Assembly: GCA_017521425.1 (NCBI GenBank)
Contig: JAFXCQ010000021.1
Span: forward strand, 16,011-80,010
DNA: 64,000 nucleotides
Source of the DNA: Clostridia bacterium
GTDB lineage: Bacteria > Bacillota > Clostridia > Oscillospirales > Acutalibacteraceae
Reading direction: 5' to 3'
The position numbers were made by a program, and so were the translations under genes. Positions 12,997 through 32,263 of this stretch are shown here, piece by piece (positions within the stretch are counted from its first letter, which is position 1; every line of letters starts with the position of its first letter). The notes below the pieces were generated by a model that saw only the letters and a list, made by a program, of their open reading frames with translations, was not told where the DNA came from and made no database searches.

Positions 12997-13049
12997 TTGA
13001 CAAATCTGTCTATTGGTGATAGACTATAGTTGTCTATTAAAGATAGACA
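12997..13049 (+). promoter_or_regulatory. SigA-type promoter overlapped by two dyad operators, presumed BlaI-family autoregulation sites
   Basis: TTGACA (12997-13002), a 17-nt spacer, then TAGACT (13020-13025). Dyad 1 is TGTCTAT-N5-ATAGACt (13007-13025). Dyad 2 is a perfect TGTCTAT-N5-ATAGACA (13031-13049). AAGGAG and ATG 13064 follow. Confidence 0.7.
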
Positions 13050-13063
13050 AAGGAGTTGATTAT

Positions 13064-13417
13064 ATGAACGAAATAAAATTAGGACTTGTTGAGGCGAGAT
13101 TTGCCGATATTATCTGGTCAAATGAACCTATAACAACTAAAGAATTAGTAACAGCCTGTCAGAATGAATTGCAGTGGAAAAGAACTACAACCTACACCGT
13201 TTTAAAGAAACTTTGTGAAAAGGGGATTTTTAAAACTGAAGACAGTGTTGTAACTTCTCTTATATCTAAAGACGAGTTTTATTCTATTCAGAGTGAACAG
13301 TTTGTAGAAGAAACTTTTTCGGGTTCGTTACCCGCATTTATTGCAGCATTTACTAAAAGAAAGAATTTAAGTGAAAAAGAAAAAGAAGAAATAAAAAGAA
13401 TGATTGAAAAGTTCTAA
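13064..13417 (+). CDS. BlaI/MecI/CopY-family transcriptional repressor
   Basis: ATG 13064 lies after AAGGAG. The 117-aa product has a winged-helix N-terminus (WKRTTTYTVLKKLCEKGI) and a C-terminal dimerisation helix. It sits directly upstream of an M56 peptidase gene. Confidence 0.85.
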   Translation: MNEIKLGLVEARFADIIWSNEPITTKELVTACQNELQWKRTTTYTVLKKLCEKGIFKTEDSVVTSLISKDEFYSIQSEQFVEETFSGSLPAFIAAFTKRKNLSEKEKEEIKRMIEKF

Positions 13418-13432: not shown

Positions 13433-16400
13433 TTGGAGAATTTATTTTTAACTATTGTTAATATGAGCATTACTGCTACCTGGGTAGTTTTGGCATTTAC
13501 ACTTTTAAGACCTTTACTTAAAAAAGTACCAAAATGGGTTAACTGCTTTTTGTGGGGGATTGTAGCATTAAGACTTTGTCTGCCTTTTAGTTTAGAGAGT
13601 GTTTTTAGTCTTATTCCTACAACAGAAACAATTCCAACAAATATAACAACATCTGCTAAACCACAGATTGATACAGGTGTTGGTGTTGTAAATAGTGTAG
13701 TTAACCCTGTTATTAGCGAGTCTTTTACTCCAGACCCAAGTTATAGTGCTAACCCATTACAAGTTATAGTTGGTGTTGCTTCTTATATCTGGCTTGTTGG
13801 TTTGGTTTTTATGGTGCTTTATTGTGTAATTTCTTACATAATGTTAAAAAGAAAAGTTTCTGCATCAGTACACTACAATAACAATATTTATTATTGCGAT
13901 AATATAGAAACACCATTTATTTTAGGTGTAATAAAACCTAAAATCTATATTCCGTCAGGAGTAAACGAAAGTGACTTGCAGTTTATTTTAGAACACGAAA
14001 AATCACATATAAAGCGTAAAGATTACCTTATTAAGCCATTATCATTTTTAATTTTGTCAGTTTATTGGTTTAACCCTGCAATTTGGCTCTGGTATATTTT
14101 ACTTTGCAGAGACATTGAGTCAGCTTGTGACGAAAAGGCAATTAAGTTTTATGATAACGAATATAAAAAAATGTATTCAACAGCATTACTTAATTGCAGT
14201 TCACAAAAACGAATGATTATGGCGTGTCCTGTTGCGTTTGGTGAAACAGGTGTAAAACAAAGAATAAAATCAGTTTTAAACTACAAAAAACCTGCATTCT
14301 GGGTAGTTGGATTTGCTATAATTCTAACTGTCTGGTTAACAATTTTCTTTGTAACAAATCCTGAAAATGATAAACTTGAGAAAATTTTAAGTGAAGATGG
14401 CTATCAGATTATAAATGCAACTGAAAAGAAAGTGTCATTTGAATTTATGTCATCAGCAATTCGCCCTGAAATGTCTGAAGATGGTAATTATAAAATTAAA
14501 TCTACTCCTTTTGTGGTAAATGATTCTCTTGAACTTCAATTTACCGAATTATTAAGTCGTGATGACAGATATACATTAACTTTTAAATCGGAATATCAGG
14601 TTATTCCTGATGAAGGTACTATCTATATTGTCAATGCTAATCAATTTGACGGAGGGTTAGAGCTTGGTGATAAAATTCTTCTTTCAGATTCATTAGAAGT
14701 TCCGAATGTAGATAGTGAATATGTTGCTACTTGTTCTTCGCAAGGTCCGGGTACAGAGTTTTCGTTTTCTGTTCCTAAAACCTGGTTTGAAGACAGGCAA
14801 GATAGCAAAATAGTGGTTACACTTGATATGTTAGAAGTTGGTTATAAAAAAATCGACTCATCTGAAGAAGAAAAAACAGAAAATTATGTTTATGCAGATG
14901 AGAATACAGGTACACTATACAGGATTAAAGATAATTATTACTATGGAGTTATTAACGTAAATAATTATCAGAATTTAGGTTTGTACTTGAAAGAAGTTGA
15001 CGGTGACAATCGTTTTATTTGTGACCTTAATACCCATGATATTACGCAAAGTGTAGTTGTAGGTGATACATTTTATTTTAAAGCAAGTGATTTCAATCTT
15101 CATAAAGTAGAGTTAAAAGAAGATGCAGAAGCTACATATTTTATAGAAGAGCTTTATCACGGTGATACATTTTTCTCAATAGAAGAATTGTTTGTAGCTT
15201 CTGATGAGTTTATTTATTGCTCTGCAAAACACAGAGGATTAAGAGAAGAATATCCTGACTGGGATTTAGTTTATTTGAAGCTGGATACTAAAAGCGAAAA
15301 ATATGAAATAATTGACAAAAATGAAATTCCAAAAGTTAATTCGGGTTTTTCAGCATTGATACCTGAAATTCAAGAGGTTTTAAATGCAACTGCGAACAAT
15401 ATTTTTGTGCAGAAAATGAATTTAAACTTTGAATCAAATGGTAGTTTTGAAAGTGGTTTAATTACTGTCCAGTTTTATGATAAAGAAAGTAATGGTTTTG
15501 CAAGAATAGGTAATATACTTATTGCTGAAGACTTTAGTGTGTTTTTTAATGAGTATGAAGATTTTAAAGAGGTATCTCCTTTAGGTAAGGACAGACTTAC
15601 TACAATTGACAAAATTCTTGAAAAAGCAGGTGTTATTGATAACACAAACTTCTGCTTGAAAAATGTTGAAAAAACACCAGATAGTTTTCAGTTGATTTAT
15701 TTTGGTAAAGCACTTTTAGAAAACGGTGTTGAACGCGAAGAACCATACACACTTTATTATGATTCGCTTTCTTATGTGTTCTCTGAAAATAGTAAAGCGA
15801 AGTATTTCAACTTAAAAAATGATAAAATTCAAAAGGGTAGTAAACCAACAAGTGTTGAAAGAAAAGCGAAATATATTTCTGGAAAAGAGTTCTTCATATT
15901 GACACCTTACTATCAGACAGAAGAACCTGCGTATAAAGCATTTGAAGATTCGTCTGGTATTGCGGGAGACTTGTTATTTGTAAGTTTTGATGAAGAACCA
16001 AAAGCAGTAGCTCCTACAACTGAATCAAAAAGAACTGAAGCAACTAATGAAAATATAAAAATTCCAACATCACAAGTTTTCAAAATGGATAATATTTCTC
16101 GTATTACATTCTATTCGTACTACGGTTCTGGTAAAGGTAGCGTTGTACCAAAAGAAAATATGACGGAAATTATAAATTGGCTTGGTTCATTTAAAATTGA
16201 TAAAAAGGCACCTGATATATTGCCTCCTGGCACTGGTACTAATTGTGTAGAAATTGAGTATTCAAACGGAACGGTTGTTAAAAAAGCATTGGATTATGTA
16301 ATGGTTGACGGTGTTCAATATAATACAAAATCTGATAACGCACCTGGTTGTTATTGGGATATATTATCTAAAACAAGTTATACTACCGATAGTGACACAG

Positions 16401-16543
16401 GAGGAGTACCCACACCTAAAGGAAAACTCGTTACCTCAAACACCCCACCAGAAAATACAACTTCTCCGGAAGGCTACACTACACACTATGTAGATTACTT
16501 CACACCGGAAGGCGAAAGGGTCTTTGAGTACTATGTTTATTAA
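13433..16543 (+). CDS. BlaR1/MecR1-family M56 peptidase signal transducer with a large uncharacterised extracytoplasmic C-terminal domain
   Basis: TTG start after GGTGGGAG. It has N-terminal TM helices and the HEKSH zinc motif (13994-14008) followed by KRKD, as in BlaR1. The last TM helix is near aa 290-307. About 730 aa follow, with no penicillin-binding motifs that I can see. Confidence 0.8.
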   Translation: MENLFLTIVNMSITATWVVLAFTLLRPLLKKVPKWVNCFLWGIVALRLCLPFSLESVFSLIPTTETIPTNITTSAKPQIDTGVGVVNSVVNPVISESFTPDPSYSANPLQVIVGVASYIWLVGLVFMVLYCVISYIMLKRKVSASVHYNNNIYYCDNIETPFILGVIKPKIYIPSGVNESDLQFILEHEKSHIKRKDYLIKPLSFLILSVYWFNPAIWLWYILLCRDIESACDEKAIKFYDNEYKKMYSTALLNCSSQKRMIMACPVAFGETGVKQRIKSVLNYKKPAFWVVGFAIILTVWLTIFFVTNPENDKLEKILSEDGYQIINATEKKVSFEFMSSAIRPEMSEDGNYKIKSTPFVVNDSLELQFTELLSRDDRYTLTFKSEYQVIPDEGTIYIVNANQFDGGLELGDKILLSDSLEVPNVDSEYVATCSSQGPGTEFSFSVPKTWFEDRQDSKIVVTLDMLEVGYKKIDSSEEEKTENYVYADENTGTLYRIKDNYYYGVINVNNYQNLGLYLKEVDGDNRFICDLNTHDITQSVVVGDTFYFKASDFNLHKVELKEDAEATYFIEELYHGDTFFSIEELFVASDEFIYCSAKHRGLREEYPDWDLVYLKLDTKSEKYEIIDKNEIPKVNSGFSALIPEIQEVLNATANNIFVQKMNLNFESNGSFESGLITVQFYDKESNGFARIGNILIAEDFSVFFNEYEDFKEVSPLGKDRLTTIDKILEKAGVIDNTNFCLKNVEKTPDSFQLIYFGKALLENGVEREEPYTLYYDSLSYVFSENSKAKYFNLKNDKIQKGSKPTSVERKAKYISGKEFFILTPYYQTEEPAYKAFEDSSGIAGDLLFVSFDEEPKAVAPTTESKRTEATNENIKIPTSQVFKMDNISRITFYSYYGSGKGSVVPKENMTEIINWLGSFKIDKKAPDILPPGTGTNCVEIEYSNGTVVKKALDYVMVDGVQYNTKSDNAPGCYWDILSKTSYTTDSDTGGVPTPKGKLVTSNTPPENTTSPEGYTTHYVDYFTPEGERVFEYYVY

Positions 16544-23064: not shown

Positions 23065-24678
23065 TTGAACACAGAAATAATAAAAATTTCTGCAAGTGAT
23101 GGTGCAGAAAAATACGAAAAAGCAGTTGAATTATTGAGAAATGATAATATAGTGGGTATGCCTACGGAAACTGTTTATGGTCTTGCGGGTAATGCTCTTT
23201 CAGAACTTTCTGTTAAAAGAATTTTTGAAGCAAAGGGCAGACCACAGGATAACCCACTCATAGTACATATTTCAGAATTTAAAGAAATGTACGATTTAGT
23301 AAGTGAAGTGCCTGAAAATGCAAAGAAATTAGCAGAAAAATTCTGGCCTGGTCCACTTACAATGATTTTACCCAAAAGCGAAAAAGTTCCTGCGTGTGTA
23401 ACTGCAGGGCTTAATTCTGTAGCTGTAAGATGTCCGTCACATATAGTTGCACGAAACTTAATTAAATACAGCGGGTTGCCGATTGCGGCACCATCTGCAA
23501 ATATTTCAGGTAAACCAAGTCCTACAAAAGCAGAGCATGTTTTTTCTGATTTGAACGGTAAAATTCCGCTTGTAATTGATGGTGGCGAAAGTGAAGAGGG
23601 TGTTGAGTCAACTGTAATTTCACTTTGTGGTGAAACACCTAAGCTTTTAAGACCAGGTAATGTAACACTCTCTGAATTAGAAGGTGTTTGTGGTAAGGTT
23701 TTAGTTGATGATGCAGTTTTAAACCCGCTTAAAGAGGGTGAAAAAGTTTCTTCACCGGGTATGAAATACAAACATTATTCACCCAACGCTACAGTTACTA
23801 TATTAAAAGGTGACTACACTTCATTTTGTCAATATGTAAATAAAAATAAAACACCTGAAACTTATGCAATGGTTTTTGATGGTGAGGGCGAAAATTTACA
23901 GGTCGAATTTATAACTTATGGTAACAAAAATGATTATCGTTCTTTGAGTAATCATCTTTTTGATTGCTTACGCGAGCTTGATACAATTGGTGCAAAACAA
24001 TGTTTTGTGCGTTGTCCAGATGAAACAACTGATGATTTAGCAGTTCTTAACAGACTTTTAAGAGCGGCGGCTTTTAATGTAATTGACCTCAATAAAAAAA
24101 CACTTTTAGGTCTAACAGGTAAAACGGGAGCAGGTAAATCTACTGTTTCAAGGTATTTAAAAGAAAAAGGTGCTTATGTTATTGACGGTGATATTGTTGC
24201 TCGTGAAGTTTTAGTTGATAATGTACCGCTTTTAAATAAACTAACTGAAAGTTTCGGTGAAGATATTTTAGAAAATGGTGTTTTAAACCGAAAAAAACTT
24301 GCTGAAAAAGCATTCAGTACCTCGGAAAACACAAAGCTTTTAAATTCTATAATGCACCCTGCAATAAACGAGAAAATTCAATCGGAAGCGAATGTAGCAT
24401 TTAAAAGTCACAATGTAGTAATTGTTGATGCGGCGGCAATAATAGAATCAGGGTACGCAGACACTTGTGACAAGTTAATTGTTGTTACTGCACCTGAAGA
24501 TATAAGAAAAGAACGCATTATTAAGAGAGATAATATTTCAGAAAAAGATGCTATAATAAGAATAAATGGTCAGAAAGATGACAAATTTTATAATGATAAG
24601 GCAGATTATATTATAAGAAACTACGAGCCGTTCTCACTTGAGAATGAAATGGCTCAGTTAATAAAAGATATTTTTTAA
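23065..24678 (+). CDS. Fusion protein: L-threonylcarbamoyladenylate synthase (Sua5/TsaC, YrdC plus SUA5 domains) and dephospho-CoA kinase (CoaE)
   Basis: The first ~342 aa carry TETVYGLAGNA, KGRPQDNPLIVHI, SANISGKPSPT and SPGMKYKHYSP. From about aa 346 the sequence is LLGLTGKTGAGKSTVS (P-loop), IDGDIVAREV, IMHPAI and VVIVDAAAIIESG, which is CoaE. It is one uninterrupted ORF. Confidence 0.85.
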   Translation: MNTEIIKISASDGAEKYEKAVELLRNDNIVGMPTETVYGLAGNALSELSVKRIFEAKGRPQDNPLIVHISEFKEMYDLVSEVPENAKKLAEKFWPGPLTMILPKSEKVPACVTAGLNSVAVRCPSHIVARNLIKYSGLPIAAPSANISGKPSPTKAEHVFSDLNGKIPLVIDGGESEEGVESTVISLCGETPKLLRPGNVTLSELEGVCGKVLVDDAVLNPLKEGEKVSSPGMKYKHYSPNATVTILKGDYTSFCQYVNKNKTPETYAMVFDGEGENLQVEFITYGNKNDYRSLSNHLFDCLRELDTIGAKQCFVRCPDETTDDLAVLNRLLRAAAFNVIDLNKKTLLGLTGKTGAGKSTVSRYLKEKGAYVIDGDIVAREVLVDNVPLLNKLTESFGEDILENGVLNRKKLAEKAFSTSENTKLLNSIMHPAINEKIQSEANVAFKSHNVVIVDAAAIIESGYADTCDKLIVVTAPEDIRKERIIKRDNISEKDAIIRINGQKDDKFYNDKADYIIRNYEPFSLENEMAQLIKDIF

Positions 24679-26301: not shown

Positions 26302-26426
26302 TCAAAAATTATTGTCGAATTTTGTGTTATTTGCGAATAGAAATAAACTGTAAAAAAGTTCATAATTATACTGAATATTTATGTATAAACGTAATATATA
26401 TAAAACAACAATTTCCGGGAGAATTT

Positions 26427-28157
26427 ATGGCAATCTTTAAATGTAAAATGTGCGGTGGCGATTTAGAAGTTTTTGATAACGCAACCGTTTGCGAATGTGA
26501 ATATTGTGGAACAAAACAAACTGTTCCCAGGTTAGATGATGAAAAGAAATTAGCGCTTTTCACCCGTGCTAATAATCTTCGCCTTAAAAGTGAATTTGAC
26601 AAAGCTGCCGGTATTTATGAAAGCATCATCGCGGAGTTTCGTGATGATGCAGAGGCTTATTGGGGACTTGTACTTTGTAAATATGGTATTGAATATGTTG
26701 AAGATAGAGACAGTAGCAGAATTCCAACTTGCCATCGTACATTACCGGTGTCGATAATGGATGATGATGATTTTCAGCAAGCATGTGAATATGCGGATAT
26801 TGCTGCTAAAACTGTTTATCGTAACGAAGCAAAGGCAATAGATAAAATTCAGAAGAAAATTTTAAAGATTGCTCATAATGAAACTCCTTACGATATTTTT
26901 ATATGTTATAAAGAAACTGACGATATAACAGGCGCTCGTACAGAAGACAGTCTTATAGCCCAAGATGTTTACACAAAACTTATAAAAGATGGTTACCGAG
27001 TTTTCTTTGCGAGAGATACACTTCGTGAGGTAGCCGGTGTTGACTATGAACCATACATATATGCAGCATTGTCAAGTGCTAAAATAATGCTTGCTATTGG
27101 TACAAAACATGAATATTACGATGCAGTCTGGGTTAAAAATGAGTGGAGTCGTTTCATTTCTATGATGGGTGATGACTCGAGTAAAGTTTTAATTCCTTGT
27201 TTTAAAGATATGGACGCTTATGATATGCCGAAAGCATTTAAAAATATGCAGGCACTCGATATGGGTGAAGTAACATTTTTTGGAGACCTCGTAGATAATA
27301 TTGAAAGAGTTTTAAGTAAATTTAGTGTTAAAGGTTCAACTGAAACCATCGGTTTTAATAGCGGAAATTCTGATGTTGCTCCGCTTTTAGAAAGAGGCTT
27401 TTTATTTCTTGAAGATGAAAATTGGCAAAAGGGTGATGATTTTTTTGAACTTGTACTTAATAAAGACCCAAAAAATGCCAGAGCATATCTCGGTAAACTT
27501 TTAGTTGACCTTGAAGTTTCAAATCCTGAAAATTTAAAAGATTTTCATACTCCTTTTGATGATAATGACAATTATCAGAAAATTATGCGCTTTGCAGATA
27601 AGTCTTTAAAAGATAATATTAAAAAGCAAAATGACATTATTATAAGACGAAACGAAGAAAACCGCAAAAGAGATATTTATGAAAAAGCAGTTTCGATGAT
27701 GTCAAGTGACACAAGTGCCAAAATGCTTGAAGCAGCAGGTTATTTATTTTTAGAAGTAAAAGATTTTAATGACGCAAGAGATTTAGCAGAAGATTGTTTT
27801 GAAAAAGCAGAAGTTGCGAGTAAAAATGAAACTCTCAGGGAAGCAAAACAAAAAATTAAACAAGATAACATCAAAAGTATTAAAACTGCCATAGAAATGC
27901 TTGAAGGAATTCAAGGTTGGGAAGATGCAGATGAGCAACTGGAATTTTGCAAAAAACGAATTGAAGAACTTAGGTTGAAAGAAATTGAGAAAAAAAGAGA
28001 ACAAGAGCGAAAAATAGCAGAAATTAAAGCAAAGTCGGAAAAACAAGCACAATACAGAGCAAAGGGGCTTTGTCAACATTGTGGTGGTGAGTTCAAAGGC
28101 TTTTTTAATAAAAAATGTGTAAACTGTGGTTTGCCAAGAGATTATTTGAAAATTTAA
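26427..28157 (+). CDS. Zinc-ribbon / TIR-domain / TPR-like / coiled-coil protein with a C-terminal zinc ribbon (TIR paralog 1)
   Basis: ATG 26427 lies after GGGAG. It has an N-terminal CKMC...CEYC ribbon. The TIR signature spans about nt 26886-27296: YDIFICYKE, GYRVFFARD, SAKIMLAIG and AVWVKNEWSRF, with the candidate catalytic Glu codon at 27141-27143. It has a K/E-rich coiled coil. The C-terminal ribbon is CQHCGG...CVNCG. Confidence 0.8.
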   Translation: MAIFKCKMCGGDLEVFDNATVCECEYCGTKQTVPRLDDEKKLALFTRANNLRLKSEFDKAAGIYESIIAEFRDDAEAYWGLVLCKYGIEYVEDRDSSRIPTCHRTLPVSIMDDDDFQQACEYADIAAKTVYRNEAKAIDKIQKKILKIAHNETPYDIFICYKETDDITGARTEDSLIAQDVYTKLIKDGYRVFFARDTLREVAGVDYEPYIYAALSSAKIMLAIGTKHEYYDAVWVKNEWSRFISMMGDDSSKVLIPCFKDMDAYDMPKAFKNMQALDMGEVTFFGDLVDNIERVLSKFSVKGSTETIGFNSGNSDVAPLLERGFLFLEDENWQKGDDFFELVLNKDPKNARAYLGKLLVDLEVSNPENLKDFHTPFDDNDNYQKIMRFADKSLKDNIKKQNDIIIRRNEENRKRDIYEKAVSMMSSDTSAKMLEAAGYLFLEVKDFNDARDLAEDCFEKAEVASKNETLREAKQKIKQDNIKSIKTAIEMLEGIQGWEDADEQLEFCKKRIEELRLKEIEKKREQERKIAEIKAKSEKQAQYRAKGLCQHCGGEFKGFFNKKCVNCGLPRDYLKI

Positions 28158-28195: not shown

Positions 28196-29542
28196 ATGTC
28201 AAAAATAGTAGATATCATTAAATACGAGGGAGATAACAGTACATTTATATGGAAGCATCCTGCTGAAGACTTTAACTATATGAGTCAGCTCGTAGTTCAC
28301 GAAAGCCAGGAAGCTATATTCTTTATGAATGGTCAGGCACTCGATTTGTTTGGGCCTGGTCGTCATACCCTCGAAACACAAAATATTCCTGTTTTGGGCA
28401 AAGCACTTAATAAAGTAACAGGTGACAAGTCACCATTCCATTGTGAAGTTTACTTTATTAACAAAACTGTACAAATGGCGCTTAAATGGGGGACAGACAG
28501 TAAAGTTCGTTTTATTGACCCACTTACAGGTGTGCCACTTGAAATTGGTGCTTGTGGTGAAATGAATCTTCAGGTTAGTGATTCCCGTAAACTTCTTGTT
28601 AAATTAGTTGGTACTATGAAAGGTATCGCGTGGGAAGCAAACAGAGAAGGTTTTACAAAAAGTCTTACTGATTCTTTTAAACCACTTATTTCAACAGCAG
28701 TTAAAACAAATCTTGCTTCTGCTTTAAAACAAAGTGAAATTGATATTTTAGAAATTGACGAACGACTTGAAGAACTTTCAGGTACTCTTTGTGAGAAACT
28801 TATTCCGGGTTTTGAAGAATATGGTTTAACAATTCCACAGTTTTATGTTACAACAGTTGTTTTACCTGAAAATGACCCTAATTTCAAGAAAATCCGTGAA
28901 TTACATACAATTTCATTCCAGAAAAAAATGGTAGAGGCAAGTAGAGAAATTGAACTCGAACGTCAGACAACCGAAACAGAAATTGTAAAACGCGAAGCAG
29001 AGCGTGAACTTATAAAAGCGCAAACTGAAGCACAGGCAGCAAAAATGGCAGGTTTTGCAGAAGCAGAAATTATGGCTGCAAAAGGTATTACAGAAAAAGA
29101 CTATGTACAGGCAGATGTTCAGAAAGCATTTGCAGAAGGTCTTGGTAATATGGGCTCCGGCGGAAGTGCTGGTGGCGGTATGATGGGCGACATCGTTGGT
29201 CTTGGTGTAGGTCTTCAGGCGGCTAATGCTATGAGTGGTCAGTTAGGCGGTATTTTCAACGGTCTTGCAGGTGGCTCTCAGGAAGCACCACAACAAAGTA
29301 ATGTTAAATGTGCTAACTGTGGTAACACATTACCTCAGAATGCAAAATTCTGTCTTGAATGTGGTACTAAAGTTGAAAATCTTTCTGAAAACGAAATAAT
29401 TTGCCCTTCGTGTGGTAAAAAGACTGCAAAAGGCAAGTTTTGTATGGAATGTGGCGCATCTTTAATTGTGAAATGTGCAAAATGTGGCGCGGAAATCCCG
29501 AACGGTGCAAAATTCTGTCTTGAATGTGGCGAAAAACTTTAA
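28196..29542 (+). CDS. SPFH/Band-7 domain protein of the YdjI (virion-core-protein-like) type with a Gly-rich linker and three C-terminal zinc ribbons
   Basis: ATG 28196 lies after GGAGG. LVVHESQEAIFFMNGQALDLFGPGRHTLETQNIPVL is the YdjI-type SPFH N-terminus, followed by a coiled coil (EIELERQTTETEIVKREAERE). The ribbons are CANCG..FCLECG, CPSCG..FCMECG and CAKCG..FCLECG, at about 29300-29539. Confidence 0.8.
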   Translation: MSKIVDIIKYEGDNSTFIWKHPAEDFNYMSQLVVHESQEAIFFMNGQALDLFGPGRHTLETQNIPVLGKALNKVTGDKSPFHCEVYFINKTVQMALKWGTDSKVRFIDPLTGVPLEIGACGEMNLQVSDSRKLLVKLVGTMKGIAWEANREGFTKSLTDSFKPLISTAVKTNLASALKQSEIDILEIDERLEELSGTLCEKLIPGFEEYGLTIPQFYVTTVVLPENDPNFKKIRELHTISFQKKMVEASREIELERQTTETEIVKREAERELIKAQTEAQAAKMAGFAEAEIMAAKGITEKDYVQADVQKAFAEGLGNMGSGGSAGGGMMGDIVGLGVGLQAANAMSGQLGGIFNGLAGGSQEAPQQSNVKCANCGNTLPQNAKFCLECGTKVENLSENEIICPSCGKKTAKGKFCMECGASLIVKCAKCGAEIPNGAKFCLECGEKL

Positions 29543-30344: not shown

Positions 30345-32243
30345 ATGGCAGTTTTTAAATGTAAAATGTGCGGTGGTGACCTCGAGGTTCAGGAAAAAAC
30401 TACCGTATCTGAATGTGCATATTGTGGAACAAAGCAAACTGTTCCAAGTTCAGATGATGAAAAGAAACTTCAACTTTTCAACAGAGCAAACAGATTAAGA
30501 TACAATAACGAATTTGATAAAGCGGCTGGTGTTTACGAGTCAATTGTAGCAGAATTCCCAGAAGAACCTGAAAGTTATTGGGGGTTAGTTCTCTGTAAAT
30601 ACGGCATTGAATATGTTGATGACAAAAAAACAGGCAGAAAAATACCAACTTGTCACAGAACTGTTCCGGTGTCAATTCTTGATGATAAAAACTATGAGTT
30701 AGCTTATGAGTATGCTGACAATTCTGCAAAAGCAATTTACAGAGAAGAAGCAAAAGAAATTGATAAAATTCAGAAAAGTATTCTTTCAATTGTTGAAAAC
30801 GAAAACCCTTATGATGTTTTTATCTGTTATAAAGAAACCGATGAAAATGGTAACAGAACTGAAGATAGTTTACTTGCACAGGATATTTACACAGAATTAG
30901 TAAAAGAGGATTATAAAGTATTCTTTTCGCGTGTTACTTTGCGTGATATGGCAGGTACTGAGTATGAACCGTATATTTATGCCGCTTTAAAAAGTGCGAA
31001 AGTAATGCTTTGTATCGGTACAAAATATGAGTACTTTGATGCTGTGTGGGTAAAAAACGAGTGGAGTCGCTTTCTTTCAATGATGGAAAGTGATGAAGAA
31101 AAGCATCTCATTCCTTGTTTTAAGAATTTAGATGCTTATGATATGCCAAAAGAATTTAAAAATCTTCAGGCACTTGATATGGATGAGGTTACTTTCTTTA
31201 AAAATCTTGCAAATTCTATCGAGAAATTTGTTGAAAAAGAAACTGTTACCGAAACAGTTATAATAAATTCCGGGCCTACTGCTATTGAGCCATTGTTAAA
31301 AAGGGCATTTATGTTTCTTGAAGATGGTGAATTTAAAGATGCAGACGAATACGCAGAAAAAATACTTGATACAAACCCTGAGTGTGCTGAAGGGTATCTT
31401 GTAAAAGTTCTGGCAGAGAATTCTTTAAGAAAAAGACGCGATTTGTCTGATTGTGAAGGTCAATACACCTGTAGTAAAGATTATCAGAAAGCTGTTCGTT
31501 TTGCCGATGAAAAGTTAAAAGCAGAGTTGGATGAGTACCTTTCAGTATGGAAAGAATACAAATATAATATTGCTTGTGAAAATATGGCAACTGCTACGAC
31601 AATTGATGAATATAATTCTGTAATTTCAATTTTTGAGATGCTCGAAGGTTACAAAGATTCACAAGAAAAAATTGAAATTTGTATGAATAATATCAATGAT
31701 ATTACCAGCGAAAATTGCAGAATTGCAGGTATTAAAAATAGTATTTGTCGAAAAAATATCAGAATAAATGAACTTACAAAAAATAAAGAAGAACTTAATA
31801 AAGCTCTTGAAGAATGTAAAGAACAGTACCACAGAAGAAAGGCTTTAAGTCTCAAAAGACTGACCGCTTCTCAGGTTGCAATGTTTGTACCAGCTTTTAT
31901 TTCGACAATGATTATCAGTTTAAATGGCGAGGTAAATCAATCACTTTCAGAAATTTTTGCTTTTCTTACTTTCGGCGCATATATTTGGTATTTGGTAGAA
32001 GTTTATTTGTTTATGAAAAAAGGTGTTAAAGGCAAAAAATACAGAATAATACTTTTTATTTACCCGTTCATTGGTTTTATTTTCTGTTTAAAAGAATGGC
32101 TTTTTATGAAGAAAAATTACAATTTTACAATCGGTGAAAAGTTAAAGGAAATCCAACTCTTAAACAGAAAAATCAGCGAATGTGATATTGAAATATTGAA
32201 AGAACAACAAGAAATAAAAAAATTGAATGCTGAGCAAGAATAG
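30345..32243 (+). CDS. Zinc-ribbon / TIR-domain / TPR-like protein with three C-terminal TM helices (TIR paralog 2, membrane anchored)
   Basis: It has N-terminal CKMC...CAYC, YDVFICYKE, DYKVFFSRV, SAKVMLCIG and AVWVKNEWSRF, with the Glu codon at 31059-31061. Hydrophobic helices lie at about aa 509-526, 536-556 and 566-587 (nt ~31869-32105), followed by a short coiled-coil tail. Confidence 0.8.
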   Translation: MAVFKCKMCGGDLEVQEKTTVSECAYCGTKQTVPSSDDEKKLQLFNRANRLRYNNEFDKAAGVYESIVAEFPEEPESYWGLVLCKYGIEYVDDKKTGRKIPTCHRTVPVSILDDKNYELAYEYADNSAKAIYREEAKEIDKIQKSILSIVENENPYDVFICYKETDENGNRTEDSLLAQDIYTELVKEDYKVFFSRVTLRDMAGTEYEPYIYAALKSAKVMLCIGTKYEYFDAVWVKNEWSRFLSMMESDEEKHLIPCFKNLDAYDMPKEFKNLQALDMDEVTFFKNLANSIEKFVEKETVTETVIINSGPTAIEPLLKRAFMFLEDGEFKDADEYAEKILDTNPECAEGYLVKVLAENSLRKRRDLSDCEGQYTCSKDYQKAVRFADEKLKAELDEYLSVWKEYKYNIACENMATATTIDEYNSVISIFEMLEGYKDSQEKIEICMNNINDITSENCRIAGIKNSICRKNIRINELTKNKEELNKALEECKEQYHRRKALSLKRLTASQVAMFVPAFISTMIISLNGEVNQSLSEIFAFLTFGAYIWYLVEVYLFMKKGVKGKKYRIILFIYPFIGFIFCLKEWLFMKKNYNFTIGEKLKEIQLLNRKISECDIEILKEQQEIKKLNAEQE

Positions 32244-32263
32244 GCTCAGCATTCAGTTTTTTT
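32225..32263 (+). terminator. Rho-independent terminator closing the TIR cassette
   Basis: gaatgctgagc (32225-32235) pairs perfectly with gctcagcattc (32244-32254) across an 8-nt loop, followed by a T7 run (32257-32263). It overlaps the stop codons of both convergent genes. Confidence 0.85.

Follow-up and report, generated by a model that had tools for sequence, protein, structure and literature searches.

We describe a cassette of four genes in a stretch of 64,000 nucleotides (the window) from a Clostridia bacterium of the Acutalibacteraceae (GenBank assembly GCA_017521425.1, contig JAFXCQ010000021.1, positions 16,011–80,010 of the forward strand). The cassette encodes, in this order, a protein with a TIR domain (TIR1), a soluble SPFH protein, a protein of 230 amino acids (aa) with four strongly hydrophobic helices (the 4TM protein, TM for transmembrane) and a second TIR protein (TIR2). 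TIR1 and TIR2 are anciently diverged paralogs of a large family, both under purifying selection, which share a long N-terminal module (N-module) and have unrelated C-terminal ends, and TIR2 most likely joined a cassette that already existed. A TIR protein of this family, an SPFH protein resembling YdjI/SamI of Bacillus subtilis and the 4TM protein together form a conserved cassette. As an explanation for the whole we tentatively favour, at somewhat less than an even chance, a module beneath the membrane in which the SPFH protein would be the scaffold of TIR proteins that cleave nicotinamide adenine dinucleotide (NAD+) in an immune-like surveillance. The genes follow each other on one strand with short intergenic gaps, and the two TIR genes lie 2.2 kb apart with the SPFH and 4TM genes in between:

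26427–28157, plus strand: TIR1 gene, 576 aa, ATG start (MAIFKCKMCGG); N-terminal four-cysteine (Cys4) ribbon, TPR-like helices, beta-hairpin with PTCHRT, TIR domain, TPR-like helices, Lys/Glu-rich helix, C-terminal Cys4 ribbon
28196–29542, plus strand: SPFH gene, 448 aa
29562–30254, plus strand: 4TM protein gene, 230 aa
30345–32243, plus strand: TIR2 gene, 632 aa; N-module like that of TIR1, TPR-like helices, long helix, three moderately hydrophobic helices, helical tail

Two TIR paralogs with a common N-terminal module

TIR1 and TIR2 can be aligned by BLASTP over 533 aa with 51% identity (E = 0). When the global alignment of both proteins is cut by region, the identity amounts to 77% in the zinc ribbon (residues 1–35), 72% over residues 1–100, 65% in the linker (101–155) and 71% in the TIR domain (156–295). 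It declines from about residue 300 on, to 40% in the TPR-like hairpin (316–360), 27% over residues 361–400 and about 20% over residues 401–505, and beyond residue 505 the proteins are not alignable. These results are in agreement with the initial annotation of this DNA, which had been made by eye and proposed a common N-terminal module with unrelated C-terminal ends; its count of 27 differences and one gap over the first 100 residues, given as about 70% identity, is exactly reproduced. On the whole its observation stands, with reservations concerning the strength of the transmembrane helices of TIR2 (see below) and one further motif. This motif, MLEG[IY].....[DQ]E[QK][LI]E[FI]C, in this form is absent from both proteins, since TIR1 has a spacer of 6 residues and TIR2 one of 3. 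It represents a single copy of a repeating helix-hairpin motif, [FWY]x[DE][AS]...x..C (e.g., VKDFNDARDLAEDC, GWEDADEQLEFC, GYKDSQEKIEIC), which is found twice in TIR1 (27765–27950, aa 447–508) and once in TIR2 (31650–31700, aa 436–452), is visible in the family consensus and is covered by no Pfam model.

The following elements of the two proteins are needed for the argument:

26892–27311, plus strand: TIR domain of TIR1, aa 156–295, Pfam TIR_2 E = 1.8e-10; codon of Glu239 at 27141–27143
28071–28130, plus strand: C-terminal Cys4 ribbon of TIR1, aa 549–568, CQHCGG...CVNCG (CQHCGGEFKGFFNKKCVNCG)
30345–30449, plus strand: N-terminal Cys4 zinc ribbon of TIR2 (C6, C9, C24, C27), four short strands in the model
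30810–31229, plus strand: TIR domain of TIR2, aa 156–295, Pfam TIR_2 E = 5.2e-11; codon of Glu239 at 31059–31061
31290–31424, plus strand: TPR-like helical hairpin of TIR2 after the TIR domain, aa 316–360; TPR models match this region in family members
31860–32108, plus strand: three hydrophobic segments of TIR2 found by hydropathy, aa 506–526, 537–555 and 568–588

The TIR assignment is well founded in both proteins, with Pfam TIR_2 scores of 41.8 bits for TIR1 and 43.5 bits for TIR2 (curated cut-off 28). An AlphaFold2 model of TIR2, built from an alignment of 51 sequences, shows residues 1–300 and 313–455 at a predicted local distance difference test (pLDDT) score of about 90 and comprises the four-strand ribbon, TPR-like helices, the beta-hairpin with PTCHRT, the TIR fold and more helical hairpins. 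Residues 156–295 (pLDDT 80–95) adopt the flavodoxin-like fold of TIR domains in this model. In a Foldseek search with full-length TIR2 generic TPR proteins dominate, and the TIR matches alone are informative: the TIR domains of MyD88, MAL and TRR-2 are matched with target-normalised TM-scores of 0.66–0.77, and those of RPP1 and Roq1 are matched, too. A sequence search of the PDB with the N-module returned only spurious summed matches to designed WD40 repeats and a weak match to the TIR domain of the flax protein L6.

Both proteins contain the sequence AVWVKNEW with Glu239, which fits the (S/A)xW(C/V)xxE motif in the alpha-C helix of enzymatic TIR domains. Glu239 and the cysteines of the N-terminal ribbon are invariant in two alignments of 51 and 56 family members (A2 and A3). 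Glu239 pairs with the glutamate of the SKWCLMEL motif of L6 (pairwise E = 0.18), the catalytic residue of plant TIR NADases, and an NAD+-cleaving activity of TIR1 and TIR2 is putative. Outside the ribbon, C84 (30594–30596) and C103-H104-R105 (30651–30659) of TIR2 are invariant as well, and C161 and C258 in the TIR domain nearly so. C84, C103 and H104, together with C161 and C258, could form a second metal site that links the pre-TIR domain to the TIR domain.

The C-terminal ends

The initial annotation had described TIR1 as soluble with a ribbon at its end and TIR2 as anchored in the membrane by three transmembrane helices at about aa 509–587. The CQHCGG...CVNCG ribbon of TIR1 is located exactly where it had been placed (28071–28130). 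At a Kyte–Doolittle threshold of 1.6, which the segments reach or exceed, TIR2 has three hydrophobic segments and the 4TM protein four strong ones, and none is found in TIR1 or in the SPFH protein. The segments of TIR2 (aa 506–588) are kept in seven orthologs (among them those in the loci L013–L016 and the proteins P0001 and P0002) and are only moderately hydrophobic; hence three transmembrane helices in TIR2 are plausible, not proven. The summed insertion cost is +2 to +4 for the segments of TIR2; those of the 4TM protein range from –3.7 to –1.4, and the soluble proteins reach +8.6 or more. The Lys/Arg counts flanking the segments (6, 0, 6, 4) fit, by the positive-inside rule, an N-terminus inside the cell and the first two spans, and the third helix is ambiguous. 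In the AlphaFold2 model this region consists of long helices of low confidence (pLDDT 40–65). Thus, the division into a soluble copy with a ribbon and a hydrophobic copy is retained, as are the three conserved segments, and the membrane anchoring of TIR2 is to be read as plausible, with doubt about the spanning strength and about the third helix.

The ribbon tail of TIR1 is shared by many other members of the family. Close relatives in the clade of TIR1 have a hydrophobic tail anchor at its position, and because the proteins of this clade are collinear until the last 25 residues or so, which are either ribbon or tail anchor, the ribbon may substitute for a membrane anchor.

Origin of the gene pair

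Homologs of the N-module were gathered with TIR2 as query. The first 300 residues of TIR1 share 84–87% identity with many proteins of other genomes compared to 70% with TIR2, and the nearest relatives of the TIR2 N-module are its own orthologs (88%), followed by P0036 (84%), the product of a stand-alone gene adjoining large surface proteins, and by the remainder at about 73%. A neighbour-joining tree of 183 N-modules places TIR1 with the TIR proteins encoded upstream of SPFH genes in other genomes (its orthologs in L014–L023), and TIR2 with those encoded downstream of the 4TM gene in L013–L016 and then with P0036. The synonymous divergence (dS) between TIR1 and TIR2 is saturated at 2.2, and that to their orthologs is 0.7–1.3. 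In addition, the cassette of the sister lineages one step out (L017–L023 and, with P0109, L007/L008) contains no TIR gene but the upstream one. These results suggest that in the ancestor of the window and L013–L016 an existing TIR–SPFH–4TM cassette most likely gained TIR2, which belongs to another subfamily, at its 3′ end.

On the contrary, the initial annotation had suggested that the pair arose by duplication in place and that the C-termini then diverged, giving a soluble and a membrane-bound copy which may form hetero-oligomers. The position of both genes 2.2 kb apart on one strand of one cassette, the N-module with 70% identity and the retention of the pair in four other species (L013–L016) under purifying selection would agree with this proposal; nevertheless, tandem duplicates should be mutual closest relatives, and as they are not, neither by N-module identity nor in the tree nor by dS, and as the sister cassettes carry the upstream TIR only, we consider a duplication in place very improbable. 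The hetero-oligomer of TIR1 and TIR2, which was part of that proposal, could still be true.

A recent neutral duplication was rejected since dS is saturated and the ratio of nonsynonymous to synonymous substitution rates (dN/dS) is low. Compared to the orthologs of the four other species, dN/dS is 0.07–0.18 in every segment of both TIR genes, including the ribbon tail of TIR1 (501–576) and the hydrophobic tail of TIR2 (501–632), whose hydrophobic segments have values of 0.08–0.16. The SPFH and 4TM genes fall in the same range of 0.07–0.18. Together with the presence of the invariant Glu239 in both proteins, these values bear out the earlier view that neither copy is decayed.

A conserved cassette of TIR, SPFH and 4TM proteins

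The SPFH protein consists of a Band_7_1 domain (Pfam E = 8.6e-38), a Gly-rich low-complexity segment and four C-terminal zinc-ribbon motifs forming two double zinc ribbons (DZR E = 1.7e-15, with a match to Zn_Ribbon_1 in addition). It has no membrane anchor, the maximum hydropathy over 19 residues being 1.05. A sequence search of the PDB with this protein gave nothing useful. The domain architecture is that of YdjI/SamI from B. subtilis, a soluble SPFH protein with zinc ribbons which is brought to the membrane by YdjG, a protein with two zinc ribbons and a transmembrane segment, and by YdjH (PMC8581546; PMC11237479; bioRxiv 10.64898/2026.02.06.704340). In this comparison the Ydj proteins are likened to the proteins of the window by their published descriptions. 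The likeness extends to the low-complexity segment and to the neighbouring membrane-protein genes; moreover, one class of partners, the TIR proteins, opens with a zinc ribbon and often bears a transmembrane segment, as YdjG does.

The 4TM protein has four strongly hydrophobic helices followed by a cytoplasmic helical bundle with a conserved KVYEAIRYSDPMSNDAL motif and ends with RNKKCKLLK. It has 733 homologs, all of about 230 aa and without Pfam domain or name. Its model is all-helical and confident (pLDDT 85), and a Foldseek search of the PDB with this model returned no match at E ≤ 0.001.

To survey the SPFH loci, one genome per GTDB species was scanned with an alignment of two SPFH sequences, which yielded 277 relatives, of which 80 loci were kept. 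They come from Oscillospiraceae, Acutalibacteraceae, Lachnospiraceae and Erysipelotrichaceae, one Bacilli metagenome-assembled genome (MAG) and one Synergistales genome. When only SPFH loci of different species with room on both sides are counted, 41 of 47 have an adjacent family TIR gene on the same strand (12 with an upstream gene alone, 26 with a downstream gene alone and 3 with both). Clustering of the neighbouring open reading frames (ORFs) yields only three recurrent families, SPFH (76 loci), 4TM (62) and TIR (60), and any other family is found in at most 6 loci; a pspA gene is not among the recurrent neighbours in the 76 loci. The layout with a soluble TIR upstream and a TIR with three hydrophobic segments downstream is limited to the window and L013–L016. 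About three quarters of the cassettes have a TIR protein with a hydrophobic segment, and the sole clade whose upstream TIR is soluble (window, L014–L016) has the TM-bearing TIR2 downstream. P0109, a tail-anchored ortholog, is flanked by the same TIR–SPFH–4TM triad. Among the carriers of the cassette are the cultivable Lachnospiraceae bacterium AC2029 (L057) and Blautia sp. HCP3S3_H10_2 (L051, L084).

Two variants of the cassette may be mentioned. In L098 (2192–14909) the module is located on an apparent conjugative element, flanked by genes for a relaxase and an FtsK/DUF87 protein. The order there is four tandem TIR genes (795, 825, 660 and 635 aa, with a gene of 291 aa between the first two), a gene of 103 aa, a Band_7_1/zinc-ribbon protein of 620 aa and a protein of 233 aa. 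In five loci a protein family of 349 aa is encoded between the SPFH and the TIR gene (e.g., L064, 12182–13225); it has a similar zinc-ribbon start (MSYLECKSCGG...) and is not detected as TIR.

A large family with variable tails

The family to which TIR1 and TIR2 belong is very large and modular and comes from gut and rumen Clostridia. A homolog search found at least 8,000 proteins at E ≤ 1e-5; among the matches listed, all begin with MA[IV]FKCKMCGG and share 50–65% identity with TIR2 across the N-terminal two thirds. When the N-terminal 150 residues were searched against 1.84 billion representatives clustered at 50% identity, 5,085 clusters were found at E ≤ 1e-3 and 2,411 at E ≤ 1e-30, the match starting nearly always at residue 1. 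Among the matches of this search that were new relative to the first one, 136 of 138 have the W..xE motif of the TIR domain, and TIR_2 is matched in all 56 representatives scanned; judged from these sequences, the pre-TIR domain practically always comes with a TIR domain.

The first 300 residues or so, comprising the Cys4 ribbon, TPR-like helices, the invariant C-H-R beta-hairpin and the TIR domain with its invariant glutamate, are strongly conserved throughout the family, and the tails fall into several types. Some tails have no transmembrane segment and often end with a TIR1-like ribbon (CQHCGG..C..CGKPKDY); others have a hydrophobic tail anchor or two to four transmembrane segments. A further type has one transmembrane segment followed by a domain, namely DUF6273 (18 of 56), RCC1 (8 of 56; e.g., P0004, P0019), LRR_5 or LRR_8 (4 and 3 of 56; e.g., P0042, P0104) and, less often, Ank or MORN. 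Family genes frequently stand in tandem, two to four in a row. Family genes are currently annotated as "TIR domain-containing protein" or "hypothetical protein" only, and the literature and defence-system libraries that we searched hold no description of the family or of a pairing of SPFH and TIR proteins; in Kaur et al. (2020) the sole mention of SPFH is an entry of the reference list.

A possible mechanism and its alternatives

The arrangement of the cassette might give a hint how it works. In the mechanism we tentatively favour, the soluble SPFH oligomer would be kept beneath the membrane by the 4TM protein together with the TIR paralog bound there, comparable to SamG and SamH with SamI in B. 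subtilis. The conserved N-module would dock the TIR proteins, including paralogs encoded elsewhere, onto the shared SPFH scaffold, which would explain why its identity stays at 55–85% between paralogs with differing tails. These tails would position or trigger each paralog: TIR2 would be placed in the membrane, and TIR1 would be attached by its ribbon tail, which takes the place of the tail anchor of its orthologs. A membrane, envelope or ligand cue would then cause the TIR domains to cluster and to cleave NAD+, resulting either in its depletion or in a signal nucleotide. SPFH scaffolds may sequester or concentrate a client, and here the client would be a TIR protein. Similar arrangements are HflK/C–FtsH, stomatin–NfeD and the flotillins, where the gene of the SPFH protein is accompanied by those of small membrane partners and of a client enzyme. 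However, those SPFH proteins are membrane anchored and their clients are proteases, whereas the SPFH protein of the window is free of an anchor.

An immune-like surveillance appears to be the most likely role, because bacterial TIR domains with such a glutamate are mostly known from immunity, because the family is expanded like receptors with variable repeats and because one copy resides on a conjugative element. We hold this role only tentatively, given the location in the core genome, the unusually conserved N-module and the lack of recognition by the defence libraries.

Several observations weigh against the favoured mechanism. The cassette of the window is situated among housekeeping genes outside any defence island. 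PADLOC gave no match for the four cassette proteins, an NCBIfam scan of the same proteins nothing above threshold, and PHROGs no match for either TIR or the 4TM protein and weak matches, mostly to zinc ribbons, for the SPFH protein. In IMG/VR, just 3 of 2.9 million viral contigs contain a relative (L093, L094 and L095, 32–49% identity), and for immune proteins the N-module is conserved to an unusual degree. About half of the sampled family members do not adjoin an SPFH gene: among eight, three do (window, P0109, P0016), four do not (P0051, P0036, P0042, P0073) and one lies on a cut contig; therefore any docking of these members would have to occur in trans. TIR2 has hydrophobic helices of marginal strength, the third with an ambiguous topology, and the alignment that places Glu239 on the catalytic glutamate of L6 is weak alone (E = 0.18). 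Finally, the mechanism rests on sequence, model and context for every member of the module. A phage-borne or defence-island origin of the window copy was considered separately and rejected because of its core-genome context.

A broader reading, unlikely in our opinion, regards the family as a prokaryotic counterpart of the Toll-like receptors. Hundreds to thousands of paralogous sensors would use their variable outer or tail domains, among them LRR, RCC1, DUF6273, Ank, TM bundles and ribbons, to detect events at the surface or in the membrane, for example, the attachment of a phage. The second part of this reading, that all of them would signal through one cytoplasmic zinc-ribbon/TIR module on a shared SPFH/4TM microdomain, with TIR1 and TIR2 as two receptors on one scaffold, is equally one that we regard with doubt. 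Many homologs indeed join one transmembrane segment, outer repeats (LRR_5/LRR_8, RCC1, DUF6273) and a cytoplasmic TIR domain, as Toll-like and plant TIR receptors do. However, the order is inverted, the TIR domain being at the N-terminus inside the cell, and TIR1 and TIR2 themselves have no ectodomain; common descent with those receptors is not implied beyond the TIR domain. Should the family truly act as receptors, gut Clostridia would possess membrane-based TIR immunity of a new kind.

TIR domains are a common currency of animal, plant and bacterial immunity, and to our knowledge the bacterial TIR systems described so far act as sensors or effectors in the cytoplasm. The present family, which is very large and abundant in gut and rumen Clostridia, is built like receptors: the output half is constant, and the tails are variable and in many cases predicted to be extracellular. 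It is genetically coupled to a flotillin-like SPFH scaffold, and the only relative of this scaffold that has been studied organises membrane-stress signalling in Bacillus. If this link is functional, bacterial SPFH microdomains would gain a concrete client and the sensing of threats at the cell surface through bacterial TIR signalling would become directly testable.

It is also conceivable, though in our view improbable, that the cassette encodes a complex for envelope stress or membrane maintenance of the PspA/SamGHI type, in which the TIR domain is a non-catalytic adaptor for oligomerisation as in MyD88 and MAL. The architecture of the SPFH protein, which is that of a membrane-stress signalling protein, the housekeeping genomic context and the high conservation of every part point in this direction, and the assemblies of MyD88 and MAL are among the best structural matches of the TIR domain. 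Yet in SamI the SPFH gene forms an operon with pspA, ydjG and ydjH, whereas neither pspA nor any further recurrent neighbour is linked to the cassette in the 76 loci, and a Pfam scan of the cassette gave no match to TPM or PspA. The 4TM protein has no TPM domain, which YdjH possesses, and the partner with the zinc ribbon has a TIR domain where YdjG has an NTF2-like domain. In addition, the glutamate of enzymatic TIR domains is invariant family-wide, which a role as mere adaptor would not demand, and a huge expansion of paralogs with sensor-type tails would be unexpected.

Quite unlikely, finally, is a two-step anti-phage system like Thoeris, in which the TIR protein would sense infection and make a signal nucleotide, the 4TM protein would bind it with its cytoplasmic bundle and breach the membrane, and the SPFH protein would organise only. 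A TIR domain with an invariant catalytic-type glutamate, encoded in a small operon with membrane proteins, is compatible with such a system, as are the strongly conserved cytoplasmic motif of the 4TM protein and its weak match to the S_4TM effector of CBASS (E = 0.008). The tandem arrays and the variable LRR, RCC1, Ank and TPR domains recall immune receptors, and one copy lies on a conjugative element. On the contrary, the cassette has no ThsA effector, and a partner such as the SIR2, SLOG or Macro protein of the ThsA type is not among the recurrent neighbours at 76 loci. The S_4TM match reaches 16 bits at a cut-off of 26.9, the 4TM model lacks a structural counterpart (see above), and the cassette is located in the core genome. 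PADLOC and NCBIfam models of Thoeris are not matched above cut-off (ThcB4 of NCBIfam 22 bits, cut-off 220), and the N-terminal zinc-ribbon/TPR module and the SPFH partner occur in none of the types in the libraries and papers searched. By analogy, the module may best be likened to a cross between the SPFH complex SamGHI and a TIR immune system, and it belongs to neither, because the defining partners, pspA and a TPM protein in one case and ThsA in the other, were not found.

The locus

The cassette is flanked upstream by prfA, a Sua5–CoaE fusion and an M18 aminopeptidase gene and downstream by a convergent GlcNAc 2-epimerase gene, with FeoAB, DnaG, sigma-70, PcrA and RqcH farther off. The window DNA matches the Clostridia MAG GCA_017517205.1. 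The locus is seen again in gut metagenomes; the sequencing runs located are DNA only, although RNA-seq was sought. For TIR1 we prefer the conserved ATG at 26427 as start; the longest ORF opens at a TTG (26322) 35 codons earlier (26322–26426), and public gene calls disagree (576 vs 608 aa). Scans of the cassette for promoters and terminators gave background level except for one element at its 3′ end:

32224–32255, no strand assigned: hairpin with a 12-bp stem and a T-run, overlapping the stop codon of TIR2

This hairpin looks like the terminator of the convergent epimerase gene and possibly functions in both directions.

Several observations on other genes of the region were made. The ORF at 23065–24678 codes for 537 aa and fuses Sua5/TsaC (threonylcarbamoyl-AMP synthase) to CoaE (dephospho-CoA kinase); in L009 both are separate genes of 342 and 196 aa. 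At 13433–16543 the window encodes a BlaR1-type M56 peptidase sensor of 1036 aa with a long unannotated C-terminal part, and the 134-aa ORF just before it (13013–13417) may be its BlaI-type repressor. Family TIR genes are found near the block of prfA, Sua5 and M18 aminopeptidase genes in the window, L009 and L096, and in two lineages they directly adjoin spo0A (L007, 10001–14961; L096, 457–9089). This position next to the prfA/Sua5/M18 block and spo0A may be ancestral, or it may be due to chance.

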